This document shows, piece by piece, positions 20,384 to 47,355 of a DNA stretch of 57,756 bases. The stretch lies in the sequence record OQ955832.1, one strand, 5' to 3'. The notes beneath the pieces were generated by a model. That model had not been told where the DNA came from. It did not search any database and saw only the letters and a program-made list of their open reading frames with translations. This DNA comes from Escherichia phage vB_EcoS_PJ16. Within the stretch, counting starts at the first letter, position 1. The number at the start of each line of letters is the position of its first letter. A program made the position numbers and the translations under genes.

Positions 20384-21403
20384 ATGAGTTACAAACAGAA
20401 TTTTCGCGACGTTGGCGCACCAGATACATTCCTGTCTAACTTTTCTGTAAGTTACTGGCAGGATACATCACTGTTTGTTGGTACTCGTTATTTCCCGGTA
20501 GTTCCTGTTAATCAGGCTGCTGGTAAGTTTCTGACTTACCCGAAAGGTTATTTCGGTCGTCCGGTTAACTCCAAACGTGCCGAAGATGGTGTTGCTAACA
20601 CTATTGGTTACAAAACCAAAAACCAGGGTTACACCGTTGATGACGATGCGATCCGTATCTTCATTTCTGACAAAAAACGTGCAAACGTTCAGAACGGTCA
20701 GCAACTGGATATGGAAGCGTCTGCAGTAACCACAGATGCGTTACTGATCAATAAAGAAGTGGATTTTGCTGAAAAATTCCTGACCGCTGGTAAATGGGGT
20801 CTTGATTTCCAGGGTAAAGACACGTCTCCGTCCACGGGTCAATTCCTGAAATGGTCTAATGCGAATGCCGATCCGATTGGTGATATCCTGTCACGTCGTG
20901 TTGCGTTCTCTCTGGCATCCGGTGGTCGCCGCTGGAATAAAGCACTGATGACGCTGGACGTGTATGACGCACTGACCCGTAGCCCGGCTGTTATTGACCG
21001 CATTAACGGTGGTTCTACCACTCAGAATCCGGGGATCGTGACTAAACAGGCACTGGCTGCACTGCTGGAAGTTGACGAACTGGAAATCATGCAGTCCGTG
21101 GTTAACATGGCTGCTGATGGCGTTGAAGACGGTGACGGCAATCCGCTGTCAGACTTCCAGTTTGCTAAAACTGGTGTGCTGATGCTCAACTATGTCGAAC
21201 CGACTGTTGGTAATATGAAACCTGTTGCGGCTGCGGGCTTCGTGTGGAACGAGTTCATCGGTCTGGGTGTTAACAACGGTCCGTCTATCCGCACCTATCC
21301 GGGTGTTGAAGGTCGTCGTGGTAATTTCGTTGAAGCGGAATTTGCCATTGATGTTCAGATGGTTGCACCTGACCTGGGCGTTCTGTTCTACGACGCGGTT
21401 TAA
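20384..21403 (+). CDS. Major capsid protein (putative)
   Basis: 339 aa; strong RBS; position after scaffold; followed by terminator. Confidence 0.6.
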   Translation: MSYKQNFRDVGAPDTFLSNFSVSYWQDTSLFVGTRYFPVVPVNQAAGKFLTYPKGYFGRPVNSKRAEDGVANTIGYKTKNQGYTVDDDAIRIFISDKKRANVQNGQQLDMEASAVTTDALLINKEVDFAEKFLTAGKWGLDFQGKDTSPSTGQFLKWSNANADPIGDILSRRVAFSLASGGRRWNKALMTLDVYDALTRSPAVIDRINGGSTTQNPGIVTKQALAALLEVDELEIMQSVVNMAADGVEDGDGNPLSDFQFAKTGVLMLNYVEPTVGNMKPVAAAGFVWNEFIGLGVNNGPSIRTYPGVEGRRGNFVEAEFAIDVQMVAPDLGVLFYDAV

Positions 21404-21423
21404 TAACAACTGTGGTATTATTA

Positions 21424-21451
21424 AGGGGTGGCTTATGCTGCCCCTTTTTTT
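21424..21451 (+). terminator. Rho-independent terminator
   Basis: GC stem ggggtggc...gctgcccc then T7. Confidence 0.65.
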
Positions 21452-21466
21452 CATGAGGTTAAAATC

Positions 21467-21820
21467 ATGCGTAATTCATATGATCCGTCACTGAAATATG
21501 TTTTCACCCGTCCGATGCTGTGGAATGGTAAACAGATGTCCGCTGGCGATAAAGTATCAACATCAAAAGCTATCCCGGCTGTTTTAAATGCCCTTGTGCG
21601 TATGCGCCACATTGAACCAGCTACTGCGACCGTTGAAGAACCAGTGACTGTAGCAACCGAAGAATCGGTATCAACCACAGCTGCTGAAATCCGACGTGAC
21701 GCGCCAAAAACCTATAACGTTTATGTTATGGGTATGCCGATGAATTCAGAATCATTCAGCAGTAAAAGTGCCGCTGCTGAATGGTGTGAATCTCAAGGCT
21801 TGACATATAACTATTCTTGA
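21467..21820 (+). CDS. Hypothetical protein (117 aa)
   Basis: Track ORF 21428-21820 trimmed to ATG 21467 with GAGG RBS. Confidence 0.45.
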   Translation: MRNSYDPSLKYVFTRPMLWNGKQMSAGDKVSTSKAIPAVLNALVRMRHIEPATATVEEPVTVATEESVSTTAAEIRRDAPKTYNVYVMGMPMNSESFSSKSAAAEWCESQGLTYNYS

Positions 21821-22573
21821 CCTATTGTTAGTTGTAGATAGTTTTCGTGGCGACTTTGCGGACTTTTTAGAAACTGACCACAAAGATAAATGCAAACGAA
21901 GAACGTTTTCTGATGGCGGCGTAATAGCCTGTAAGTCAGCAAGGTCTTCCGATTCCTTGTAAATAAATTCGGCGCACTGGCCCGGTGTGATTAATAATGG
22001 GCACCCACGAATGAGAGTATTGTGATTGATCGTCGTTCTTGCGCGCAAAGTCTGCTCGAAGACAGTATTCTCATTCGTGGGTAACAACGGGCGTGTCGCC
22101 TTAGTAAATCCCTCAAGGGTGCAGCGAATAATCCGGTAATGTCGTTGCCGTAAGCCGCACGAAACGTGGCACACAACAGGTAAGAGCATTTGGTCAATGC
22201 GAAGTTATTCGCGCAGACGTAAGGCCTAATTGTCGGCAGTGCTCTTATCGTTGTGGTGAATTGCAGTTCTCAGAAACAACCAGAAGATAAGCGTCTGGCA
22301 CCACAACACAAACACTCGCTGATAAGGAGGTGATCCTTATCTTGCTGGCGGGAAAGCCGCAAATCGTGGGTAAAGCATGTTGTGAAACATCCTGAACTGC
22401 GTGTCGTTTTACATAACTGGTTATTCACGTGTCACGCATAGGGGTATGTTGGGACGTCAGGTGTGGATGACCAGTTATGTAAAACCCTCATTATCACCCA
22501 GAGCCATTTGCCGTCTGTTTAAGACGGCTTTTTTCGTGCTAATATAACGAAAACATTTCTCACAGGTGATCAC
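21821..22573. other. ORF-free structured intergenic region (about 750 bp)
   Basis: All plus frames closed; minus ORFs lack RBS; long hairpins, palindromes and a terminator at its 3' end. Confidence 0.6.
22510..22534 (+). terminator. Rho-independent terminator
   Basis: Stem gccgtct/agacggc then T6. Confidence 0.7.
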
Positions 22574-22984
22574 ATGGCTATTACAGTTGAAGGTATTCGT
22601 TATTTGATCAGTGTCCCTGATGTTACTGATGAACAAATTCAGTGGTACATTGACAACGGTTATACAAATCCTCTCAGTATTTGCGTTGCTCTCTGTGATT
22701 ATATGGCGTCTATCGCCAGCAACGATACTGATATTAAAGTAGGTCCGATCTCACTCAGCAGTAGTCAGTCAGCAGACGCCTGGAATAAACTTAAAAAAGA
22801 TTTTATTTTACGTATTAATACTGGCGCTGATTCAGGTGGTGGTTTGTTAGGTAGTTTTATGGGTGTTGGTGGAGCTACATTAACTGGCGCTGGTATGCAA
22901 CCTGCTATTCAACGTGGTCAGTTCGACAACCCACCTGTAACACTTGAAAGCGGTGGTCGTGCACTTAACGAGGGTGAACGGTGA
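22574..22984 (+). CDS. Head-tail connector protein (putative)
   Basis: 136 aa; first gene of tail-proximal block. Confidence 0.4.
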   Translation: MAITVEGIRYLISVPDVTDEQIQWYIDNGYTNPLSICVALCDYMASIASNDTDIKVGPISLSSSQSADAWNKLKKDFILRINTGADSGGGLLGSFMGVGGATLTGAGMQPAIQRGQFDNPPVTLESGGRALNEGER

Positions 22985-26235: not shown

Positions 26236-26531
26236 TCGACTTCCTCTTGTGGAACGATAAGACAGACGGGGACGACCTGGACTGGGTTACACAAGGGGCG
26301 GCTGCACGTGGTATATCTGTTCCGGTTGTTGTACAGAAACGACCTAGATTGCGACCTGATGCTATATTTTTTTGGAATGCTTACGTGGATCTGATGGAAG
26401 CTGATTGGGTTGCTTGTGAGCGATATGCACGGGTGTATAACGTTGATGTACAATTCCTATGGAAATTATTGGTAGCGTTGCGGTCTGCACGTGTTGTCGA
26501 GATGAAGAAAAATAAACACAAGCCCGGTTAG
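26226..26531 (+). CDS. Tail assembly chaperone -1 frameshift extension (GT-like)
   Basis: -1 frame opens at 26226 within the heptamer and runs to 26531; track ORF 26247-26531 is the same frame. Confidence 0.5.
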   Translation, partial: KKLIDFLLWNDKTDGDDLDWVTQGAAARGISVPVVVQKRPRLRPDAIFFWNAYVDLMEADWVACERYARVYNVDVQFLWKLLVALRSARVVEMKKNKHKPG

Positions 26532-26544
26532 TTCCGGGCTTTTT
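26519..26544. terminator. Bidirectional rho-independent terminator
   Basis: Stem agcccgg/ccgggct with U-rich tracts on both strands between convergent genes. Confidence 0.65.
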
Positions 26545-26623
26545 CATTTATGTAGTCGAGGATTGCAGGAGAGTATTTAAACCACTCTGTAGCACCGTCA
26601 AAACCTTTAAGACGCGCGTTAAG

Positions 26624-44676: not shown

Positions 44677-47355
44677 GTGAGTCAACAACCACTTCGTTAT
44701 TACCAACAAGATGCAGTTAACAACGTGCGCCAGGCATGGTCGAACGGTGCTAATGACGTGATTCTTGTGCTTCCCACTGGCTGTCATGCTAAAGACAGTG
44801 AAATTCTTATGTACAACGGTGATGTTATAAAAGTACAGGATGTTTTACCTGGTGATTTATTGATGGGTCGTGATTCATTACCACGAACCGTGTTAGCGTT
44901 AGCTCGTGGCAGAGAAGAAATGTTTGAAATCATCCCAGTCAAAGGGTCACCTTTCCGTGTAAATAAAAATCACATATTACATTTGATACATACTGAATCA
45001 AAAGAAGAAATAGACATTTCTGTAAGTGATTACTTACAGAAATCAAATTATTTCAAACATTGCCACAAGTTGCTTCGTACGGGGGTTGATTTCGAATATC
45101 GCGAACCACCGACTTTAGACCCGTGGTTTGCCGGGATTATGATCGGTGATGGTAGTTACAAATCAGGTACACCACGTCTGACAAATGCAGACTCAAGTAT
45201 TTTAGAAAAGGCTACTTTTTACGCAAACCTTTTTGGATGTGTCTGCAAAGATGTAAAAGGTAACAACTGTGTTACACGTTATTTCGGTTATCCCGGGTCA
45301 TCGCGTTCGGTTAGTAACCCGTTGAGCGATGCGATGAAATCTGATGGATTGTGGGGGAAAATCGCACATGAAAAATCAATACCTGATGTGTATAAAAAAG
45401 GAAGCAGAAACACACGTTTAAACGTTCTGGCAGGATTAATTGATAGCGACGGATATATTTCACATAAGGGCGTTGATTTTGTGTCCAAATCACAGCAGTT
45501 AGCCGCTGATTTAGTGTTCGTTGCAAGAAGCCTGGGGAAAGCCGCGTATTACAAAGCCTGTGTTAAATCATGTCAAACGGGTAATGCAAACATTTACTAC
45601 AGAGTGAGTATTAGTGGCGATTTAAGCGATGTACCATTCGTTAGAAAACATGGTGATTTAACGAGAAAGCAGAAGAAAAATCATTTAGTAACGGGCTTTT
45701 CTGTTCGGTCTGTTGGTGAAGATAATTTTTATGGTTTTATGGTTAACGGTGACAATCTTTATCTTACGTCAGACTTCATCATCCATCATAACAGTGGTAA
45801 AACACGTACTATGGCTGAACTACTAAAATCCGACGGTGTAAAAGTCATCCAGGCACACCGCAAAGAACTAGTTAGTCAAATCGCAATGGCTGTTGCTCGC
45901 CAGGGGTTAGCACACAGATTTATAGCGCAAAAAGATACTGTTAAGTTTGCAACTAATCAGCAGATGAAAACGCTTGGTTACAGTACCTATTCCCCCGGTG
46001 CTGACATCGTTATTACCAGTTCACAAACGTTAAGAACAAAACAGTACGAACGATGGTACAACGACGTGTCTCTTGTATTCAGCGACGAAGCGCATCACCT
46101 GGTGCGTGGCACACAGTGGGGAGACTGCCGGGAAAAATTCCCTAACGCTAAAGGTCTGGGTGTTACAGCCACACCGATCCGTGCTGACGGTAAAGGCCTG
46201 GGTCGTCATGCATCAGGTTACGCAGATCAGATGATCATTGGTCCGTCAATGCGTGAATTAATCAGTCAACAACACCTGGCTGATTATCGTCTGATCATGG
46301 CTGAAACAGACCTGGAATTAACCGCAGAAATGATTTCTCATACGACGGGTGATTACAAACCATCTGCGTTAAAAAAAGCGATGGAAGATTCAAACATTGT
46401 TGGTGATACCGTTAGTACGTGGAAAACGTATGCAGATGGTTTACTCACTGTTGTGTTTACGTGTGATGTGGATTCTGCTGAAGCACTTGCAAAAGAATTT
46501 CGCGATGCTGGCATTCCTGCAGAGGCGATCAGTTCACGAAACAGTAATCAGGAACGAGCGGATATTCTGGAACGTTTTGAACGACGTAAAACACTCGTGC
46601 TATGTAACAACGATTTATTCGGTGAAGGATACGACTGTCCGGCAATGGAATGTGCAGTAATGGATCGCCCCACAGAATCTTACTCTTTGTTTGTACAACA
46701 AATGGGTCGACCATTGCGTTTCAAACCCGGTAAAAAAGCACTGATTATTGATAAAGTCGGTAATGTTCGTCGATTTCTGGCCCGTGGTTTTCCACTTCCT
46801 GATCAGCATTACAACTGGTCTTTAGATGACCGTGACCGTCGTTCATCTAACAGCAGTGGGAACAGTAATACAACATGTACAAACAAGGGTGATCCTGATA
46901 ATGGTATTCCACCGTGTCTGAAGCCTTATCCGTCTGGTCTTCCGTGCTGCCCGTATTGTGGTCATGTTCCTGAAAAAGCCGAACGCTCAGGCCCGGATCG
47001 TGTAGAAGGTAATTTACGTGAACTGACACCTGAAGAACTGGAAGAATTACGCCGGGCAGTGGTGATAATCGACCGTGACCCTGTTGCAGTAAAAGAACAA
47101 ATGTTAAACGCGGGTGCACCCCCTGTTGCAGCTTACAGTGCAATGAAAAACATTCAGGCAATGAACGATGCACAGCGTAAGTTACGCAGCATGATCACCA
47201 CATGGGCAGGTATTCAGCGTGATAAAGGTATACCCGTTGATGACGCTTACAAGATGTTTTACAGGGTGTTTGGTGTTGATGTACTTAGTGCACAGGGCTT
47301 ACGTACTCGTGAAGCTAATGAACTCGCCGCAAGGGTTGCAAGTTCATTAATCTGA
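44677..47355 (+). CDS. SF2 DEAH-type DNA helicase, intein-containing precursor
   Basis: GTG start with AAGGA RBS; Walker A split as LPTG / SGKT by intein; DEAHH, TATP, QQMGRPLR motifs; C-terminal CxxC zinc ribbon. Confidence 0.85.
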   Translation: MSQQPLRYYQQDAVNNVRQAWSNGANDVILVLPTGCHAKDSEILMYNGDVIKVQDVLPGDLLMGRDSLPRTVLALARGREEMFEIIPVKGSPFRVNKNHILHLIHTESKEEIDISVSDYLQKSNYFKHCHKLLRTGVDFEYREPPTLDPWFAGIMIGDGSYKSGTPRLTNADSSILEKATFYANLFGCVCKDVKGNNCVTRYFGYPGSSRSVSNPLSDAMKSDGLWGKIAHEKSIPDVYKKGSRNTRLNVLAGLIDSDGYISHKGVDFVSKSQQLAADLVFVARSLGKAAYYKACVKSCQTGNANIYYRVSISGDLSDVPFVRKHGDLTRKQKKNHLVTGFSVRSVGEDNFYGFMVNGDNLYLTSDFIIHHNSGKTRTMAELLKSDGVKVIQAHRKELVSQIAMAVARQGLAHRFIAQKDTVKFATNQQMKTLGYSTYSPGADIVITSSQTLRTKQYERWYNDVSLVFSDEAHHLVRGTQWGDCREKFPNAKGLGVTATPIRADGKGLGRHASGYADQMIIGPSMRELISQQHLADYRLIMAETDLELTAEMISHTTGDYKPSALKKAMEDSNIVGDTVSTWKTYADGLLTVVFTCDVDSAEALAKEFRDAGIPAEAISSRNSNQERADILERFERRKTLVLCNNDLFGEGYDCPAMECAVMDRPTESYSLFVQQMGRPLRFKPGKKALIIDKVGNVRRFLARGFPLPDQHYNWSLDDRDRRSSNSSGNSNTTCTNKGDPDNGIPPCLKPYPSGLPCCPYCGHVPEKAERSGPDRVEGNLRELTPEELEELRRAVVIIDRDPVAVKEQMLNAGAPPVAAYSAMKNIQAMNDAQRKLRSMITTWAGIQRDKGIPVDDAYKMFYRVFGVDVLSAQGLRTREANELAARVASSLI
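44782..45792 (+). mobile_element. Intein with double-LAGLIDADG homing endonuclease in helicase P-loop
   Basis: Begins with Cys after LPTG, ends HN before Ser; LAGLIDSDG and FAGIMIGDG motifs; 337 codons in frame. Confidence 0.8.

Follow-up and report, generated by a model that had tools for sequence, protein, structure and literature searches.

A long punctuation hairpin at the 3′ edge of a tmRNA-like RNA in Escherichia phage vB_EcoS_PJ16

What is a long inverted repeat doing in a stretch of late phage DNA that seems to encode no protein? In Escherichia phage vB_EcoS_PJ16 (record OQ955832.1; 57,756 nt, hereafter the window), a repeat of this kind lies in a 754-nt gap (21820–22574) without credible open reading frames (ORFs). 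A sequence-only reading of the window had described it as an imperfect inverted repeat with a palindromic loop at 22002–22085, typical of structured RNAs or DNA-level recognition sites. The structured hairpin, here called H1, stands; what that reading did not see is its context: it accompanies an RNA resembling transfer-messenger RNA (tmRNA), as an accessory marking the 3′ edge. H1 is one of the widespread long ‘punctuation’ helices that separate modules of phage stable-RNA and late-leader transcripts. The RNA directly upstream of it (the core) looks like the structured message part of a tmRNA without the tRNA part.

A helix selected in the + strand RNA

22003–22082, + strand: hairpin H1, a 21-bp basal stem, 2×2 internal loop, 4-bp extension and apical stem-loop (repeat search, folding).

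The arms of H1, 22003–22023 (ACCCACGAATGAGAGTATTGT) and 22062–22082 (ACAGTATTCTCATTCGTGGGT), are 21 nt each, lie 38 nt apart and are 90% Watson–Crick complementary. The two other positions are G·T, and as + strand RNA the arms form 21 of 21 contiguous pairs, two of them G·U. The earlier description (about 16 bp with one wobble around a 40-nt loop) had the right place and understated the size. Its term ‘two-tier hairpin’ was apt: the 38-nt interior forms the extension (UUGA 22026–22029 with UCGA 22056–22059) and then the apical stem-loop. The palindrome it reported, cttgcgcgcaaag, is imperfect over 13 nt and contains a perfect 10-nt palindrome, TTGCGCGCAA, at 22039–22048, the apex of H1. Within this, the self-complementary GCGCGC (22041–22046) lies in a 7-nt apical loop. 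Folded as + strand RNA, H1 reaches −40.4 kcal/mol, compared with −23.4 ± 3.5 for 200 dinucleotide shuffles (z −4.8; none as good); the − strand reaches only −30.7 kcal/mol, about 10 kcal/mol worse.

Selection on the helix was assessed with 31 distinct arm pairs at the homologous position in other phages, chosen by duplex folding. Both sides are altered at 15 of the 18 base pairs. Covariation scores 0.736 for the true arms, 0.25 for shuffles and no more than 0.17 when the partners are slid. G·U outnumbers A·C in the family arms by 49 to 4. Because of this excess, and because the − strand folds worse, we conclude that the helix is maintained in the + strand transcript; H1 is a real helix under selection as RNA. 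Compensatory change among related genomes had been set beforehand as the check on a structured RNA and is present, which supports that proposal. The same strand asymmetry speaks against a cruciform or DNA-level recognition site as the selected feature.

A long helix directly 3′ of the core is conserved in position: a duplex of −24 kcal/mol or better directly follows the core in 94 of 104 distinct downstream segments, a count set against a weak single-nucleotide shuffle control in which 45 of 104 also reach this value. The hairpins that follow the core in the Pollock, Vi01-like and wV8 lineages are mutually unrelated in sequence. Besides the weak control, other points weigh against selection on the helix. 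Choosing arms by duplex folding inflates the percentage of paired positions and could add to the G·U excess, and compensatory change in DNA can be mimicked by templated quasi-palindrome mutation.

A stable intergenic stem-loop in a late operon might also terminate or attenuate transcription between the head genes and the neck genes, which we regard as very improbable. No U-tract follows the stem (the 3′ sequence is GUGGGUAACAACGGG), the terminator scan did not call H1, and a 38-nt structured interior is atypical of intrinsic terminators. Conserved structured modules also continue downstream in the same orientation. H1 is not a terminator.

Punctuation hairpins and a proposed role for H1

22170–22258, + strand: hairpin H2, a canonical lambda-type punctuation hairpin (CACACAACAGGUAAGAGCA ... 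UGCUCUUAUCGUUGUGGUG; folding, arms as in lambda 44787–44865).
22083–22168, + strand: module M3, conserved and structured, invariably located after type-B hairpins such as H1 (19 distinct versions).

The archetype of the family is a phage lambda hairpin at 44787–44865, directly after tR′. H1 and H2 share its setting, a leader or stable-RNA string before late genes. The arms of H2 are nearly base for base those of lambda, and H1 is a paralogous, arm-compensated variant (CCCACGAAUGAGAGUA/UAUUCUCAUUCGUGGG, compared with CACAACAGGUAAGAGCA/UGCUCUUUCCGUUGUG in the lambda type). H1 also differs from the lambda hairpin in its interior and in having no bulge or U·U mismatch along its 21 pairs. As defined here, a family member has the stem base CAC(A/C)CA../..UG(U/G)G(U/G)G, flanks a stable-RNA module and has a variable interior. 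H1 has the base CACCCAC/GUGGGU and H2 the base CACACAAC/GUUGUGGUG. On its own H1 is ordinary, a processing-type helix whose archetype sat unremarked in the lambda late leader.

Similar hairpins recur elsewhere at the borders of stable RNAs. In ESCO13-like phages one follows tRNA-Thr by 1–3 nt within a tRNA array, in a Klebsiella phage one separates four tRNAs from the holin gene, in prophages they flank the core on both sides, and in P1 one separates the core from tRNA-Asn/Thr. Unrelated enterobacterial phages thus carry strings of stable RNAs (tRNAs and modules resembling small RNAs) as interchangeable cassettes split by a shared, covarying hairpin. The punctuation hairpins offer a simple grammar for locating unannotated phage RNAs and their boundaries.

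We hold it somewhat probable that H1 is a punctuation helix in the + strand RNA and determines or shields the core's 3′ end, likely via RNase III; both the cleavage and the 3′-end role are inferred. RNase III would cut the stem and free the core from module M3, and an uncleaved H1 would still block 3′ exonucleases, so that either way H1 would define and protect the 3′ end. The stem has 21 contiguous pairs and 4 more after the 2×2 loop, and the idealised Escherichia coli RNase III substrate is 22 bp (PMC3867540). Since 21 + 4 bp approximates a two-helical-turn RNase III duplex, cleavage of the stem would free the upstream RNA. The prophage dicF RNA is freed by RNase III (PMC2777011), and RNase III sites have been mapped on the lambda late transcript, according to the passage of PMC7547250 that cites Daniels et al. 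(1988, Virology 167:568). The tR′ hairpin of lambda is also long, so this last link is suggestive and tempers the interpretation.

Stems of rRNA operons, the T7 early sites and dicF in the dicB operon likewise place about two turns of double-stranded RNA between functional RNAs (PMC3867540, PMC2777011, PMC5371410). Like them, H1 has a variable interior and variable flanks. Unlike them, it has an apical loop with extra conserved features that RNase III does not need.

These features suggest another reading, that H1 is a presentation stem whose GCGCGC loop mediates kissing dimerisation or docking to another RNA. The H1-type interior recurs in 78 phage records on three different basal arm sets. 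Its apical stem is compensated (CUU/AAG to CCU/AGG), and the loop hexamer keeps its self-complementarity as GCGCGC, GUGCAC or GGGCCC (window 22038–22050; loci L134, 735–747; L135, 925–937; and L126). Homologous interiors elsewhere read CCU-GUGCACA-AGG and CCU-GGGCCCA-AGG. The two variable loop positions change together and stand 2 nt apart, where pairing within one hairpin is impossible. The HIV-1 dimerisation initiation site is a kissing loop with self-complementary GCGCGC or GUGCAC. By sequence, H1 and its homologues similarly expose a purine-flanked hexamer of this kind on a short stem; they differ in the 7-nt rather than 9-nt loop, in the phage context and in the absence of the motif from many hairpin copies.

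We nevertheless consider this reading rather unlikely. Only three independent hexamer variants are known, the centres of near-perfect inverted repeats tend to become palindromes through templated mutation, and in phage Bas79 the palindrome is broken by a 1-nt insertion. At this position Bas78 and the prophage copies have interiors of wholly different sequence, so that the adjacent RNA does not in general need the loop. The interiors of Bas79, Bas78 and the prophage copies are unrelated on homologous arms, and H2 has arms identical to those in phage Sasha around an unrelated interior. In a punctuation helix, only the stem base is constrained and the interior is exchangeable cargo, which here consists of a short apical stem closed by a self-complementary loop.

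The arms may have a further role in module exchange. Homology to Sasha stops after a promoter (at 21827) and is regained exactly with the 5′ arm of H2, at about 22167; 21828–22166, comprising the core, H1 and M3, stands where Sasha has about 75 unrelated bases. In the hybrid hairpin of locus L013, a 5′ arm of lambda type pairs with a 3′ arm of type B. These breakpoints and hybrids such as that of L013 indicate that the conserved arms are also joints of module exchange. A stronger version would make the repeat a DNA-level feature, such as a recombination linker, a cruciform or a protein site for cassette exchange, with the RNA fold incidental. The Sasha breakpoints, the identical H2 arms, the L013 hybrid and the near-identity of arms across unrelated phage families favour it. 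We think it improbable, given the G·U excess and the strand difference in folding energy, and given that pairing survives wide divergence of the arm sequences, whereas a protein site or homology patch would need the reverse. Alongside selection as a + strand RNA helix, the arms could still act secondarily as shared-homology patches at phage recombination junctions.

Module M3 has covarying hairpins of its own. Across its 19 versions two hairpins covary, with arms such as GCAGCGA/UCGUUGC, GCGACGC/GCGUCGC and GCUGG/CCAGC and a change from GCCGCAC-GAAA-CGUGGC to GCUCCAC-GAAA-CGGAGC. One of the two has a conserved apex, CACGAAACG, and M3 also holds a conserved single-stranded CUUAGUAAAUCCC. No Rfam family matches M3. 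In locus L118 it lies upstream of the core, which makes it an independent cassette. A possible pairing of GGCGAC in the core (21849–21854) with GUCGCC in M3 was rejected: M3 changes to AUCGCC on a constant 5′ side, without covariation.

Some minor observations concern the arms and their cargo. The lambda-type 5′ arm starts with CACAACA (window 22172–22178, lambda 44789–44795). This is the consensus target motif for the R1 seed of GcvB, by which AgvB, a prophage anti-sRNA, is defined (PMC4104026), and the 3′ arm, GUUGUGGUG, looks similar to a G/U-rich seed. As these bases are paired in the hairpin, the likeness is probably coincidence; RNase III cleavage could free the arms. Some prophage hairpin interiors contain T-arm-like GGTTCGAnTCC on a 4–5-bp stem (L002, 6130–6170 and 6350–6380; L013, L018, L118 and L122). 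They resemble tRNA remnants or tRNA-like minihelices as cargo, and none was called as a tRNA.

The tmRNA-like RNA upstream of H1

21836–22002, + strand: the core, a tmRNA-like RNA of about 165 nt without a tRNA-like domain (sub-threshold Rfam tmRNA matches, covariation).
21838–21882, + strand: 5′ antisense domain, about 45 nt (duplex folding against E. coli ssrA, nt ~53–106).
21892–21924, + strand: tag frame GCA AAC GAA GAA CGT TTT CTG ATG GCG GCG TAA, encoding ANEERFLMAA* (coding signature).
21910–21939, + strand: helix around the stop codon, CUGA (21910–21913) with UCAG (21936–21939), like tmRNA helix 5 (RNAalifold).
21940–21972, + strand: pseudoknot a, CAAGG (21940–21944) with CCUUG (21955–21959) and CCGA (21949–21952) with UCGG (21969–21972) (RNAalifold).
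21973–22002, + strand: pseudoknot b, CGCAC (21973–21977) with GUGUG (21985–21989) and GCCC (21980–21983) with GGGC (21999–22002) (stem 1 by RNAalifold).

The core ends at 22002 and H1 starts at 22003. At gathering thresholds Rfam has no match in the window, and the core falls below the cut-offs of the tmRNA families (RF00023 and the two-piece RF01849–51 and RF04321); a permissive search gives beta_tmRNA at 23.5 bits (threshold 84) and tmRNA_permuted at 27.8 bits (threshold 47). The core shares with tmRNA an internal tag frame and the fold 3′ of it.

The tag frame has no start codon. It begins at GCA, ends in a hydrophobic, AA-type C-terminus as tmRNA tags do, and is followed by a second stop, TAG, at 21925–21927. 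All 10 codons and the stop are present in 30 distinct DNA versions, which encode 18 peptides of the form A-N-D/E-x-x-x-(L)-x-(A/V)-A. Third positions have an entropy of 0.99, compared with 0.62 and 0.49 at the others, and the last codon, GCN, occurs with each of the four bases. The synonymous share of codon differences is 26% in the tag frame, compared with 2.5% and 9% in the two alternative frames; these are broken by stops in 27 and 23 of the 30 versions.

This signature bears on the idea that the gap encodes a protein on the − strand, where a 145-aa ORF spans 21752–22189, and that the repeat is coincidental. The ORF does exist, and the records of Bas79, Bas78 and some other phages annotate coding sequences or ‘hypothetical proteins’ here. 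We find the idea barely credible. The − strand ORFs of the gap match no PHROG or Pfam family, the 1-nt indels and whole-module replacements of relatives would wreck such a frame, and the roughly 760 records with the element mostly leave it unannotated. The coding signature is on the + strand tag frame, and the RNA helices covary.

The fold of the core as a tmRNA-like message is supported by covariation. Both sides are altered at 15 of 22 pairs, a value that none of 500 shuffles reaches. In the stop-codon helix this holds for all four pairs. Stem 1 of pseudoknot a covaries (CG/UA, GC/AU and others), as does its loop stem, from CCGA/UCGG to CCAA/UUGG, CCAG/CUGG and GUCG/CGAC. Stem 1 of pseudoknot b also covaries (CG/GC/UA); stem 2, compared by eye (GCCC/GGGC, CGGGAG/CUCCCG, GCCCAC/GUGGGC and CCCCGU/ACGGGG), is poorly aligned and 75.9% paired. 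A stop-codon helix and H-type pseudoknots 3′ of the tag are the arrangement of a tmRNA, as is the resume context AUAAAU|GCA, which agrees with the Rfam beta_tmRNA consensus and resembles other tmRNA lineages and two phage tmRNAs described below.

The core nevertheless fails the defining test for a tmRNA, because no tRNA-like domain (TLD) lies in it, beside it or in the window. ARAGORN finds neither tmRNA nor tRNA in the 57.7-kb window, and Rfam at E ≤ 1 finds no tRNA or TLD match there. No T-loop motif is present in 21800–22600, and the whole window lacks an acceptor stem, a T-arm and a CCA for such a domain. In relatives, ARAGORN finds nothing beside the core at five of seven loci. A TLD was also sought in locus ends, hairpin interiors and downstream sequence; T-arm-like motifs appeared only in some prophage interiors, not in the window. 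An apparent G3·U70 in L118 was rejected, as it lies within a continuous helix followed by U rather than by A73-CCA. The core is only about 165 nt long, and an anti-host stretch replaces the 5′ half of the TLD and the pseudoknot PK1. Phage-borne tmRNAs are known in the mycobacteriophage Bxz1 group and Bacillus phage G, and DS6A has a TLD only (PMC4131195). The core is the mirror image of DS6A, which keeps the TLD alone.

tRNA-like parts do occur at some other loci. In wV8 (L007), an unannotated tRNA-like gene (1665–1743) lies 20–40 nt 3′ of the core, within a Felix O1-like tRNA array. It has an acceptor CGGGGCG/CGCCUCG with G3·U70, A73, an encoded CCA and a good T-arm; it has no D-stem and a UCU anticodon-like loop, scores 31.7 bits with the Rfam tRNA model and is not called by ARAGORN. 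In wV8 and its kin it could serve the tag RNA as an alanine-accepting partner, or it could be an unusual tRNA-Arg. Two viral contigs, L011 (IMGVR_UViG_3300018418_001574, ~1400–1620) and L026 (~40–260), share AAAGATAAATGCAAACGA with the core family and carry genuine tmRNA genes with the 5′ half of a TLD (GGGGGTGA...GGTTCGAC). These are the two phage tmRNAs whose resume context resembles that of the core. The tmRNA of L011 is circularly permuted, with an acceptor piece ending ...CCTCCACCA upstream of the coding piece, and the tags of L011 and L026 are ANDNIAYEEFALAA and ANDEKFALAA. Possibly these tmRNAs are relatives of the ancestor of the TLD-less RNA.

The core begins with an anti-tmRNA stretch. 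Its target, nt ~53–106 of E. coli ssrA, comprises PK1, the linker, the resume codon and tag codons 2–6, and the invariant core motif UAGUUUUCGU (21839–21848) is the exact antisense of the host ACGAAAACUA. The duplex has an energy of −42.0 kcal/mol, compared with −29.0 ± 3.2 for shuffles. For four of six domains tested, ssrA 46–125 beats all 6770 background windows from E. coli and phage; for the other two it is in the top 0.2%, and within ssrA only this segment stands out.

The domain aligns as a slightly deleted reverse-complement copy of ssrA. An origin by inverted duplication, with the domain paired to the tag region of the phage itself, was rejected: for all 29 aligned members the mean energy is −33.3 kcal/mol with host ssrA and −16.2 with their own tag region. 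GCGAC and UUUGCGG of the domain match GUCGC and CCGCAAA of the host, neither of which the phage template contains. The exact target 20-mer occurs in ssrA of Aeromonas, Serratia, Enterobacter, Pantoea and others, and the target is near-identical across Enterobacterales and Vibrio. As a mild negative for this interpretation, Aeromonas phage pIS4-A shows no compensation for the PK1 differences of Aeromonas ssrA. From its sequence, the core is plausibly an antisense antagonist of host tmRNA, and it looks chimeric, an anti-host domain joined to a message domain of foreign origin.

Further likeness to ssrA outside the domain was rejected as chance. A 22-nt stretch shared with Sasha (22344–22365) holds GCTGGCGGGA, antisense to ssrA 347–356 (T-stem and acceptor 3′ strand), AAAGCCGCAAA, identical to ssrA 71–81, and CGCAAATC, antisense to ssrA 24–31. 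Such matches (e.g. at 22344–22363) are at chance level for 8–11-mers (E 0.05–3 each).

Why would an RNA that pairs with host tmRNA keep a translatable tag? One tentative answer is that the core parasitises host ribosome rescue and that H1 is its release signal, a possibility we hold to be doubtful. The 5′ 45 nt would anneal to host tmRNA over PK1, the resume codon and the first tag codons and so silence the host template. The pairing would tether the core to the alanine-charged tRNA-like domain of the host and to SmpB, and the phage resume codon, 9–10 nt 3′ of the duplex, would emerge where the host single-stranded template normally starts. Rescued ribosomes would then add ANEERFLMAA, ANDDVVLMAA, ANEEMYLAVA or similar tags instead of ANDENYALAA, and the fate of the tagged proteins would change. 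Such a swap would explain a tag frame conserved in some 760 phage genomes without a TLD. As a hypothesis only, docking on charged host tmRNA is the simplest reconciliation of the antisense domain with the tag frame.

The core joins a translatable tmRNA tag template to an anti-host-tmRNA domain with no TLD. It is at least a candidate phage inhibitor of trans-translation; if the tag swap is true, it would be a way to reprogram the degradation tag through the host's own tmRNA. tmRNA matters for the growth of some phages (lambda–P22 hybrids, Mu) for reasons that are debated. The core makes this need directly testable in standard E. coli and Salmonella phage systems.

The core occurs in about 760 phage records and is nearly always unannotated. 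Its lineages include Sashavirus, Dhillonvirus-like BASEL phages, N4-like Pollock, Kuttervirus/Vi01, Felixounavirus and P1, as well as Klebsiella, Erwinia, Serratia and Aeromonas phages. It is also present in lambdoid prophages of 137 E. coli genomes, in the interval from Q to the holin gene. It tends to adjoin or sit inside tRNA gene arrays, on the strand of the tRNAs. In P1 (L140, NC_005856, 1275–2125) it lies in the leader of the ban operon, controlled by the C1 repressor, with a ‘dicF-like region’ on one side and tRNA-Asn/tRNA-Thr on the other. Induction of P1 should therefore switch on its core, and P1 is for this reason a convenient system for experiments.

The curated P1 record annotates the upstream ‘dicF-like region’ and not the core, and the curated annotations of P1, lambda relatives and BASEL phages hold no entry that describes the core. 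In the searchable literature, to which access was partial, no tmRNA-like phage RNA without a TLD and no anti-tmRNA phage RNA was found. The core is apparently an undescribed RNA family.

The nearest concepts are tmRNA itself, the TLD-only RNA of mycobacteriophage DS6A (PMC4131195) and the prophage anti-sRNAs AgvB and AsxR. These anti-sRNAs are Hfq-binding RNAs of 51–60 nt with a conserved terminator that target and antagonise GcvB or FnrS (Tree et al., 2014, PMC4104026). As a class they have a conserved ~42-nt 3′ region with the terminator and a variable 14–18-nt 5′ seed (PMC4104026). Like the anti-sRNAs, the core has a 5′ end complementary to a core host non-coding RNA, and prophage cores share the moron site 3′ of P_R′, in the Q-to-holin interval. 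The core differs in its length of about 165 nt, its ~45 nt of interrupted complementarity to tmRNA, its tag frame and pseudoknots, and its lack of a terminator of its own; it shares the concept with this class and not the traits that define it.

The prophage copies L020, L108 and L013 have a − strand terminator, CCCCGCTTCGGCGGGGATTTT, at about +330 to +400 from the core. This terminator probably belongs to the convergent anti-sRNA genes of Tree et al. (2014), so that the tmRNA-like cassette and the anti-sRNAs occupy one moron site.

The non-coding locus in its genomic setting

21800–21828, + strand: sigma-70-type promoter, TTGACA / 17-nt spacer / TATTGT (consensus scan, 10 of 12 matches; predicted activity).
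22406–22485, + strand: hairpin H3, the third long helix of the locus, about 28 bp (folding; identical in Sasha).
22510–22536, + strand: terminator-like hairpin and T-run closing the locus (terminator scan, called at 22510–22528).

The window is a Sashavirus sequence with 99.5% identity to OZ035775. One flank of the gap holds the head genes, with the major head protein at 20384–21403 followed by a small conserved ORF, and the other holds the connector and neck genes. In the tail-gene region, a weak Rfam match to Trp_leader at 26464–26547 (30.7 bits, threshold 41, E 0.027) is most likely chance.

Transcription of the locus is predicted to start at about 21834–21836. The promoter sequence is shared with Sasha up to 21827, and other members of the core family have a TTGACA...TAGATT promoter of their own at an equal distance from the conserved 5′ motif. 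The terminator scan makes two calls, 21423–21446 and 22510–22528, and the Sasha record annotates a terminator at the place homologous to 22510–22536. From these sequence signals we infer a non-coding transcript of about 700 nt that would run from the promoter to this terminator. Folded as a single RNA, the gap is highly structured (z −7.1), with H1, H2 and H3 as three long hairpins. H3 and a conserved stretch at 22311–22400 match Sasha base for base, and since Sasha lacks the tmRNA-like cassette, the resident Sashavirus non-coding locus presumably has a function of its own.

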